Shown in pieces: positions 1-2,052 of a DNA stretch of 64,000 nt (the first letter of the stretch is position 1; each line of letters begins with the position of its first letter). Under the pieces are notes generated by a model. That model was given only the letters and a program-made list of their open reading frames with translations, did no database searches and was not told the DNA's origin. The stretch lies in NCBI RefSeq assembly GCF_030013595.1, contig NZ_CP122768.1; one strand, 5' to 3'. A program made the translations under genes and the position numbers. Source of the stretch: Escherichia coli. GTDB lineage: Bacteria; Pseudomonadota; Gammaproteobacteria; Enterobacterales; Enterobacteriaceae.

Positions 1-370
1 AATTGCCCGTATCGCCGTCATCTTAATTTTCATTATTTTTGGTTTTCCCAAAATGATGGGCTTTGACGGTACGGTCCAATATATGGCCTCGCTGGGCGCG
101 CCGATGCCGATGCTGGCAGCTATTATTGCGGTAGTTATGGAAGTGCCCGCCGCGATATTAATCGTGCTTGGCTTTTTCACCCGTCCGCTGGCGGTGCTGT
201 TTATTTTCTACACGCTGGGTACGGCGGTGATTGGTCACCATTACTGGGATATGACCGGCGATGCGGTTGGGCCAAATATGATTAATTTCTGGAAGAATGT
301 CAGTATCGCTGGCGCATTCCTGCTGTTGGCAATTACCGGGCCGGGGGCAATTTCTCTCGATCGGCGTTAG
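1..370 (+). CDS. DoxX-family inner-membrane protein (YphA-like), C-terminal part; N-terminus lies upstream of the window
   Basis: ORF 53..370 is in frame with the window start; hydrophobic helices and the [10 protein letters not shown]...[15 protein letters not shown] region are typical of DoxX proteins. Family call is from memory. Confidence 0.55.
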
Positions 371-376
371 GAAAGA

Positions 377-395
377 TGCCGGATGCGGCGTGAAC
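377..395. repeat. Left half of a REP (palindromic unit) split by the IS insertion
   Basis: gccggatgcggcgtgaac at 378-395 joined to gccttatccggcc at 1832-1844 reconstructs the canonical REP GCCGGATGCGGCGTGAACGCCTTATCCGGCC. Confidence 0.7.
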
Positions 396-437
396 TGAAC
401 TGCACCCCAAATGTTGGACATAATCTGACATCTGAAG

Positions 438-968
438 GTGCAGTTTATGAAACATTCATTTGAAGTAAAACTTGCCGCTGTAAATCATTACCTGGCTGGT
501 CATGCAGGCATCATTTCTACGGCAAAACTCTTTCAACTTTCTCACACCAGCCTCTCACACTGGATTAATCTTTTTCTTCTTCACGGTCCTCGTGCACTGG
601 ATTGCAGACACAAGCGTAGCTATTCTCCTGAAGATAAACTTTGCGTGGTTCTTTATGCTCTCGGGCATTCTGAGTCTCTACCCCGGGTAGCTGCCCGGTT
701 TAACATTCCCAGCCACAACACGGTTAAAAACTGGATAAAAGGCTACCGCAAATCTGGTAATGAGGCCTTTATCAGGCGCAGGAAGGAGAAAAGCATGACC
801 CGTTCTGATGATACCCATGAAAACGAGGCAAACATGACGCCGGAAGAGATGAAGAATGAGCTGCGTTATCTTCGCGCAGAAAATGCATATCTGAAAGCCA
901 TGCAGGAGCATCTCCTGGAAAAAAAGCGCCAGGAGCTGGAGAAAAAACGAAAGTCATCCGGAGCCTGA
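438..968 (+). CDS. IS3-family transposase OrfA (helix-turn-helix plus leucine-zipper region)
   Basis: ORF track 176 aa; basic/coiled-coil C-terminus (ELRYLRAENAYLKAMQEHL); A AAA AAG frameshift motif at 920-926 near the 3' end. Confidence 0.8.
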   Translation: MQFMKHSFEVKLAAVNHYLAGHAGIISTAKLFQLSHTSLSHWINLFLLHGPRALDCRHKRSYSPEDKLCVVLYALGHSESLPRVAARFNIPSHNTVKNWIKGYRKSGNEAFIRRRKEKSMTRSDDTHENEANMTPEEMKNELRYLRAENAYLKAMQEHLLEKKRQELEKKRKSSGA

Positions 969-1795
969 GGTGCGGACACTGCCAGTCTGACCTGTTAAAG
1001 GCTGCAGGGCTGGCCAGAAGCACGCTGTACTACCAGCTGTCACTGCAGAAGGCTAAGGACAAGTATGCTGATGTGAAACAGCTCATAGCCTCCATCTTCC
1101 ATGAACACCGGGGATGTTATGGGTACCGGCGGATCCATTGTGAGCTTCAGAAAAGAGGTCTTAAGTTCAGTGGCAAAACGGTGCGAAAACTGATGCAACA
1201 GCTCGGCCTGAAGTCTCCTGTGCGCCTGAAGAAATACCGGTCTTACCGGGGAAATATGGGACTCGCTGCAGAAAATATCCTTCAGCGGCAGTTCAAAGCG
1301 GAAGCTCCCTGTGAGAAATGGGTGACAGATATCACCGAATTCAGGGCTGGCGGACAAAAACTGTACCTGTCCCCGATACTTGATTTGTTTAACGGGGAAA
1401 TCGTGGCGTGGGAAACTGCCTGCAGGCCTACAGAGGAGCTGGTGAAGCGGATGTTAAATAAGGGGCTGGAAAGCCTTGCTGAAGGGGAGAAACCGCTGCT
1501 CCACAGTGATCAAGGATGGCATTACCGGATAAAAAGTTATCAGTCCGCCCTGGCGGACAGAGGGTTAGTGCAGAGCATGTCGCGCAAGGGCAACTGCCTT
1601 GATAATGCGGTAATGGAGAACTTCTTTGGTCACCTGAAAGAAGAAATGTACTATCGCCGGGACTACAGAAATGTAGAAGAGCTGGAAAATGCCGTTAACG
1701 AATACATAACTTACTGGAATCAAAAAAGAATAAAACTCAGTCTTGGGGGACTCAGTCCGGTAGAATACCGGACTGAGCATCAAAAAGCCGGTTAA
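920..1795 (+). CDS. IS3-family transposase OrfB (DDE integrase domain), expected to be expressed as an OrfAB fusion by -1 frameshift at 920-926
   Basis: The -1 frame is open from about 890 through 1795; the ORF track lists 1073..1795 from a GTG. Translation has integrase-core motifs (WVTDITEF, LHSDQGWHY, GNCLDNAVMENFFGHLKEE). Confidence 0.75.
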   Translation, partial: KKAPGAGEKTKVIRSLRCGHCQSDLLKAAGLARSTLYYQLSLQKAKDKYADVKQLIASIFHEHRGCYGYRRIHCELQKRGLKFSGKTVRKLMQQLGLKSPVRLKKYRSYRGNMGLAAENILQRQFKAEAPCEKWVTDITEFRAGGQKLYLSPILDLFNGEIVAWETACRPTEELVKRMLNKGLESLAEGEKPLLHSDQGWHYRIKSYQSALADRGLVQSMSRKGNCLDNAVMENFFGHLKEEMYYRRDYRNVEELENAVNEYITYWNQKRIKLSLGGLSPVEYRTEHQKAG

Positions 1796-1827
1796 CTGAA
1801 ACTGTCCAGGTTTTGGGGTTCAGTTCA

Positions 1828-1847
1828 GAACGCCTTATCCGGCCACT
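1828..1847. repeat. Right half of the REP split by the IS
   Basis: gaacgccttatccggcc immediately follows the right IS end. Confidence 0.7.
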
Positions 1848-1851
1848 CAGC

Positions 1852-2052
1852 TCACTTCTTCGGTTGATCCTTTTTCGGCCTGTCGTCGTCATCGTCCCAC
1901 TTATCGTTGAAATCACGATGCGGGGGAAGCTCCGGCTTGTTGGCGAGAAATTTCTTATGGTCGACGCGCTTGAGATCTTTAATCACGTTCAGCAGGACGC
2001 CTACCAAAAAGACAATCACCAGAATCCACCAATATTTAGCCAGCCAGTCCAT
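1852..2052 (-). CDS. ypfN: Small membrane protein YpfN (UPF0370), 66 aa
   Basis: ORF 1852..2076 has an internal Met giving [23 protein letters not shown]...; lies immediately downstream of dapE as in K-12. Confidence 0.7.

Follow-up and report, generated by a model that had tools for sequence, protein, structure and literature searches.

Gene layout at the left end of the window

The sequence analyzed here, called the window below, is a stretch of 64,000 nucleotides (nt) of the Escherichia coli contig NZ_CP122768.1 (RefSeq assembly GCF_030013595.1). At its left end (positions 1-2052) the 3' part of a DoxX-family gene, a copy of the insertion sequence (IS) IS1397 and the gene ypfN stand next to each other, with the IS located inside a repetitive extragenic palindromic (REP) element. 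The initial annotation had described an IS and a DoxX-family gene in the place of ypfH; this layout and its coordinates were accurate, and we identified the DoxX-family gene as yphA. The features of the region are as follows.

1..370, plus strand: 3' part of yphA (DoxX-family inner-membrane protein), truncated by the window start; stop codon at 368-370
377-391: left arm of the REP hairpin, tgccggatgcggcgt, followed by loop bases GAAC at 392-395; an arm of the yphA/yphB REP
396..1827, plus strand: IS1397 (IS3 family), intact, 1432 bp
447..1795, plus strand: IS1397 transposase OrfAB, 449 aa; OrfA at 447-926, OrfB at 926-1795
1828-1831: GAAC repeat, followed by the right REP arm gccttatccggcc at 1832-1844; an arm of the ypfH/ypfN REP
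1852..2052, minus strand: ypfN, 66 aa; NCBIfam PRK13664, 134 bits (cut-off 98)
2080..3207, minus strand: dapE, scoring above the NCBIfam equivalog cut-off; first gene of the un-rearranged side

Beyond dapE, the genes yffB, acrD and narQ follow in the K-12 order, and ypfH is not present at the left end of the window. The visible junction breaks no gene: both yphA and ypfN end ahead of the REP hairpin, which lies between their 3' ends and is split. Only the C-terminal 122 codons of yphA fall within the window, and their NCBIfam match is a sub-threshold one to a DoxX-like family (HvfX). The identity of the gene was established by nucleotide comparison. All 395 of the 395 nt covering the yphA part and the REP (window 1-395) coincide with the annotated "yphA: DoxX family protein" locus of strains KE55 and HCP5S3_I2, while eight mismatches separate the window yphA from that of K-12.

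Standard gene order and the closest relative

The initial annotation had given the K-12 order as ypfN-ypfH-tmcA-ypfJ-purC, and the K-12 coordinates agree with this order: ypfN (+) at 2592762-2592962 is followed by ypfH (-), tmcA, ypfJ and purC. It had also asked where the DoxX-family gene normally resides. In K-12, yphA (+) occupies 2673346-2673768 between hcaD and yphB (-), on the same strand as ypfN and 80.8 kb away from it.

The closest relative of the window is the pig isolate HCP5S3_I2, which is 99.9% identical over 23 kb. Near the junction, the 395 nt of the yphA side are free of mismatches, and the 1715 nt of the ypfN side contain one. In HCP5S3_I2 both REP sites are empty and the gene order is standard, with a distance of 97.6 kb between yphA and ypfN.

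The REP element around IS1397 is chimeric

The REP element that surrounds IS1397 in the window is chimeric, with a left arm of the yphA type and a right arm of the ypfN type. The left arm, atgCggcgt with ggaaaga before it, is that of the REP in the yphA-yphB intergenic region of K-12, KE55 and HCP5S3_I2. It is unlike the left arm of the ypfH/ypfN REP, which in HCP5S3_I2 reads ggccggatgTggcgt (atgTggcgt at the empty site). The right arm, ccggccactcagctca, is that of the ypfN REP; it runs on as ...ccactcagctcacttcttcgg, exactly like the empty ypfH-ypfN site of HCP5S3_I2, whereas the right arm of the yphA/yphB REP runs on as ggcattt instead. The insertion site in the REP loop reads gcggcgtGAAC, then the IS, then GAACgccttatccggcc, while empty sites read gcgtGAACgcc.

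The 4-bp repeats next to the IS proved less helpful than the arms. The loop of the ypfN REP is TAAC in K-12 and SK1402 and GAAC in HCP5S3_I2, which represents the window lineage; the loop of the yphA REP is GAAC. Since both native loops are GAAC, the GAAC repeats cannot show two insertion events, and for the same reason we rejected the target duplication as a proof of recombination. The initial annotation had considered identical flanking repeats uninformative in such cases. This is correct for the present lineage but does not hold in general, given the TAAC loop at the ypfN site of K-12 and SK1402. For an IS that targets REP elements, the customary test for IS-IS recombination by mismatched duplications can fail, and the REP arms or the flanking genes must serve in its place.

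Uniqueness of the yphA-ypfN junction

In a megablast search, none of the 5,426 complete E. coli genomes had a single place covering window positions 1-2300. We also made a synthetic query by fusing two 3-kb pieces, hcaB-hcaD-yphA of HCP5S3_I2 and ypfN-dapE-yffB-acrD of the window; such a query detects a direct yphA-ypfN adjacency as well as one in which the genes are separated by up to 3.5 kb of inserted DNA. Both halves of this query were found together in 0 of the same 5,426 genomes. Each half of the junction alone was also found in genomes carrying a simple IS1397 insertion at the respective REP. Among the matches listed for an identical DapE protein, the order was ypfN-ypfH in all ten places. 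Strain PCN033 (CP006632.1) codes for an identical OrfB, yet its genome does not have the yphA-IS1397-ypfN junction. As a possible further sign of an IS at this site we considered two Logan contigs that end 45 bp past ypfN; they were rejected, being K-12-like, stopping within the REP and belonging to another strain.

These searches bear on the possibility, raised in the initial annotation, that the arrangement is native to the strain, with yphA being the normal neighbor of ypfN in the lineage and the IS alone being new. The adjacency, with or without an insert, occurs in no genome searched, the gene order of the 99.9%-identical relative is standard, and yphA is not a conserved neighbor of ypfN in related genomes; ypfN-ypfH is the order in every one of the ten listed places with the identical DapE. 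Nothing that we found speaks for a native arrangement, and we consider it to have practically no chance of being correct. The yphA-ypfN arrangement is neither native nor conserved but arose by a recent rearrangement, specific to the strain, of DNA that the lineage already had; the event is regarded as young and strain-specific because the recombinant junction is absent from all 5,426 genomes.

Orientation of the flanking genes points to inversion

In the standard order yphA and ypfN are co-oriented, while in the window they are convergent, their stop codons facing each other over the IS. If the segment from the ypfH/ypfN REP to the yphA/yphB REP is flipped, the result is precisely the observed arrangement yphA(+)-IS(+)-ypfN(-). 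The 3'-to-3' meeting of yphA and ypfN therefore indicates an inversion, not a deletion. On the question of which REARRANGEMENT, an inversion is supported, rather than a deletion or a native arrangement. Its direct support comes from the chimeric junction and its uniqueness, from the gene orientation, from the intact IS and from the existence of a natural strain with the precursor configuration, described below.

The initial annotation had proposed an IS-mediated deletion or inversion joining distant loci; of the two, the inversion stands and the deletion fails on orientation. Deletions between IS copies occur often in E. coli (PMC4173774, PMC5009759); the one considered here would span the interval from ypfH to hcaD. 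In a deletion, however, orientation is kept: the partner of ypfN would be the 5' side of yphA, or else yphB, but not the inverted 3' end of yphA. It would also lose dapA, hisS, ispG, der, hda and the isc operon, all located in the interval. These genes are essential. We give the deletion a negligible probability.

The IS1397 element

The window contains a single copy of IS1397, whose boundaries were set by comparison of filled and empty sites; its length and target duplication likewise come from the sequence comparisons of the present analysis. The copy is 98.9-99.9% identical to RefSeq copies annotated as "IS3-like element IS1397 family transposase". Its terminal inverted repeats are imperfect, with matches at 21 of the first 25 bases. 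OrfB scored 299 bits against the IS3-family transposase profile NF033516 (cut-off 160), and homologous copies of IS1397 bear rve domains. A -1 frameshift at A AAA AAG (920-926) connects OrfA with OrfB; both frames stay open over the slip site, and the span of OrfAB corresponds to the RefSeq coding sequence annotated with "programmed frameshift" in SK1402 and KE55.

REP-specific insertion of IS1397 is documented in PMC1525189, which cites Clement 1999 and Wilde 2001, 2003 for insertion into REP elements (palindromic units). All 11 IS1397 copies that we examined in other genomes are 1432 bp long, lie in REP loops and have 3-4 bp duplications. The window copy resembles the known insertions (PMC1525189) in the same respects, i.e. 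the length of 1432 bp, the location in a REP hairpin loop and the 3-4 bp target duplication; in addition, both REPs of the window junction are occupied in other natural isolates. The difference is that a simple insertion has both arms from one REP, whereas the arms in the window come from two REPs located 80-100 kb apart.

A single fixed orientation of IS1397 within the REP would have preset the choice between inversion and deletion. This idea was dropped, as two of the 11 copies are reversed. The copies reversed relative to the REP arms are those of PCN033 and CP018770.2.

Precursor configuration in other strains

We found IS1397 at the REP downstream of yphA in 58 genomes and between ypfH and ypfN in six genomes. 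In natural isolates both REPs were hit by IS1397 in the same orientation relative to the flanks as in the window.

Strain SK1402 (NZ_AP046545.1) has IS1397 at both sites. One is yphB(+)-IS1397(-)-yphA(-) at 1395020-1396865, with the IS at 1395020-1396368; the other is ypfH(+)-IS1397(+)-ypfN(-) at 1469373-1470978, with the IS at 1469373-1470721. The two copies are mutually inverted and 73 kb apart, and the interval between them is un-inverted. Such a two-copy configuration is exactly the substrate that an inversion requires. SK1402 is like the window in having IS1397 in both REPs, in the same orientation to each flank. It differs in gene order (yphB-IS-yphA and ypfH-IS-ypfN, the interval not being inverted) and in its origin from another lineage, with 98.4% flank identity and with TAAC, not GAAC, at the ypfN site.

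As for the SK1402 genome itself, we observed that the whole hcaR-hcaEFCBD cluster is missing, with hcaT directly after yphA (NZ_AP046545.1 1391000-1400000). A query containing IS1397 matched 26 places in this genome, which suggests a very high IS1397 load.

Probable inversion between two IS1397 copies and its alternatives

The left end of the window is probably one of the two junctions of an inversion that arose by homologous recombination between inverted IS1397 copies. The ancestor would have had the standard E. coli gene order, with one IS1397 insertion in the REP hairpin loop downstream of yphA and another in the REP hairpin loop between ypfH and ypfN, the two copies being oppositely oriented. 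RecA-type homologous recombination between these inverted 1.4-kb repeats would then have flipped the DNA between them, a segment measuring ~98 kb in the window lineage and 81 kb by the K-12 coordinates. The flipped segment would hold ypfH-tmcA-purC-dapA, hyf, purMN, guaBA, der-hisS-ispG, the isc operon and hca-yphA, and the 3' part of yphA at 1..370 would thus be a part of it. The product would be yphA-IS1397-ypfN at one end, with ypfH-IS1397-yphB predicted at the other end. We infer this second junction, the exact size of the segment and the role of recombination, rather than of the transposase, in making the join. Two independent REP-loop insertions followed by homologous recombination are favored because both REPs are natural targets, SK1402 displays the two-copy state, and IS-IS recombination is an established process.

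As documented in PMC4173774 and PMC5009759, large inversions in E. coli arise mainly through recombination between IS copies. The window shares with those inversions the scheme of two inverted copies of one IS acting as a portable homology, an intact IS standing between flanks of distant loci and no sequence lost at the join. The events in mutation-accumulation lines mostly involved IS1, IS2, IS5 and IS186 (PMC5009759), while here the element is IS1397. Also, unlike in the cited cases, both endpoints are REP hairpin loops, which leads to identical target duplications and no record of exchange, and the observation is of one junction.

If the inversion is true, ~80 genes located to the left of the window switch orientation within one replichore. 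In that replichore, genes on the K-12 minus strand are co-directional with replication. We deduced the K-12 strands of the interval genes from the HCP5S3_I2 annotation and from the relative orientation of the HCP5S3_I2 record. The isc operon, hisS, ispG, der, bamB, ndk, rlmN and rodZ would then be placed head-on to replication.

Several points weigh against the inversion by recombination. It rests on one junction, with the reciprocal junction and the inverted interior lying to the left of position 1. Comparison of the window IS1397 with the copies at both sites in other strains revealed 9-11 scattered differences in each case and no mark of a crossover; those strains belong to other lineages. 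The 4-bp flanks of the IS are GAAC on both sides, as are both native loops. Finally, some cost is expected for head-on isc, hisS, ispG and der after an inversion within a replichore. The head-on placement fits a young event that has not spread.

The same junction would be produced by a one-step inversion carried out by the transposase. In this scheme, a single IS1397 residing at one REP would attack the other REP loop of that chromosome, so that the IS would be duplicated and the interval inverted with neither a separate second insertion nor host recombination. The high specificity of IS1397 for REP loops (PMC1525189) agrees with both endpoints being REP loops, and the product would be identical in sequence to the window, with GAAC on either side of the IS; since the two loops are both GAAC, sequence cannot separate the one-step route from the recombination route. 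On the other hand, both sites are independently occupied in other strains, with SK1402 being a two-copy, un-inverted intermediate. The IS3-family elements IS911, IS2 and IS3 move by a copy-out/paste-in pathway via a free circle. Such a pathway leads to simple insertions, and we regard the one-step inversion as rather improbable.

An assembly mis-join would make the junction an artifact: IS1397 would be present at both REPs in the standard order, and wrong flanks would be linked across the identical copies. The un-inverted two-copy genome of SK1402 and the uniqueness of the junction among the 5,426 genomes both speak for this explanation. However, the assembly resolves all three IS copies of the window at their sites, among them two identical 1329-bp IS10 copies, each with a correct, matched 9-bp duplication. 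The resolution of the identical IS10 copies indicates a long-read or finished assembly, and therefore a mis-join at a 1.4-kb repeat is unlikely. Real IS-bounded inversions are also common (PMC4173774).

With one junction visible, a more complex history may also be considered, such as translocation or duplication of the hca-yphA segment to a site beside ypfN, or an inversion that was larger or took several steps and whose second endpoint lies elsewhere than on the yphB side of the same REP. More than 20 IS1397 copies in some relatives (the 26 matching places in SK1402) would offer many recombination partners, and successive rearrangements in one region are known (PMC4173774). Such a scenario is less parsimonious, though; both flanks belong to the lineage itself (0-1 mismatches), and the endpoints coincide exactly with the two REP loops into which IS1397 is known to insert. 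We see only a slim chance for it.

Implications for annotation and synteny

The inversion between IS1397 copies, if accepted, is a new instance of a well-known type of event, the IS-bounded inversion, with a known element (IS1397) and a known type of target (REP loops). The junction reveals no new mechanism or system. What matters for annotation and for synteny comparisons is that the left edge of the window is a rearrangement breakpoint, not a novel gene neighborhood.

A broader speculation, which we hold to be quite unlikely, starts from the almost exclusive insertion of IS1397 into REP loops: particular pairs of REP elements might serve as predictable endpoints of recurrent inversions (58 genomes have the yphA REP occupied, six the ypfN REP), with the flip possibly made in one step by the transposase instead of by host recombination. 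If true, the REP arrays would represent a map of preferred inversion endpoints on the E. coli chromosome.

Additional observations

YpfN of the window has the substitution W57R (base 1881) with respect to K-12 and to the 99.9%-identical HCP5S3_I2. Base 1881 is the sole difference from HCP5S3_I2 in 1.7 kb on the ypfN side. Among the matches listed, the exact W57R protein was also present in a few unrelated assemblies.

The yphA..ypfN interval is 97.6 kb long in HCP5S3_I2 versus 80.8 kb in K-12. The additional content in HCP5S3_I2 includes an island with sinH, sinI and an adhesin gene, located between der and xseA, a pair of DUF262 genes that follow guaA, a duplicated unit of an sseB fragment and timP, and an ISVsa5 (IS10-like) insertion disrupting pdeF. 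In many E. coli lineages the gap between ypfJ and purC carries a two-gene insertion coding for a 132-aa PIN-domain protein and a 75-aa partner, a pair with the look of a VapBC-type toxin-antitoxin system. This insertion is not present in K-12, HCP5S3_I2 or SK1402.

The two identical 1329-bp IS10 copies, each coding for a 402-aa IS4-family transposase, occupy window positions 24911-26239 and 31457-32785 in the eut operon and are mutually inverted. The match to HCP5S3_I2 ends at 24910, where the first IS10 copy starts. The copy that splits eutJ is flanked by the 9-bp duplication GGCGTAGTG and the copy that splits eutB by the 9-bp duplication CGCGCAGTG, while eutG-eutH-eutA, located between the copies, retain the operon orientation. 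Because each copy has its own matched duplication and the orientation of eutG-eutH-eutA is kept, the pair represents two simple insertions with no exchange. The two copies make up a Tn10-like composite, and ethanolamine utilization should be abolished.

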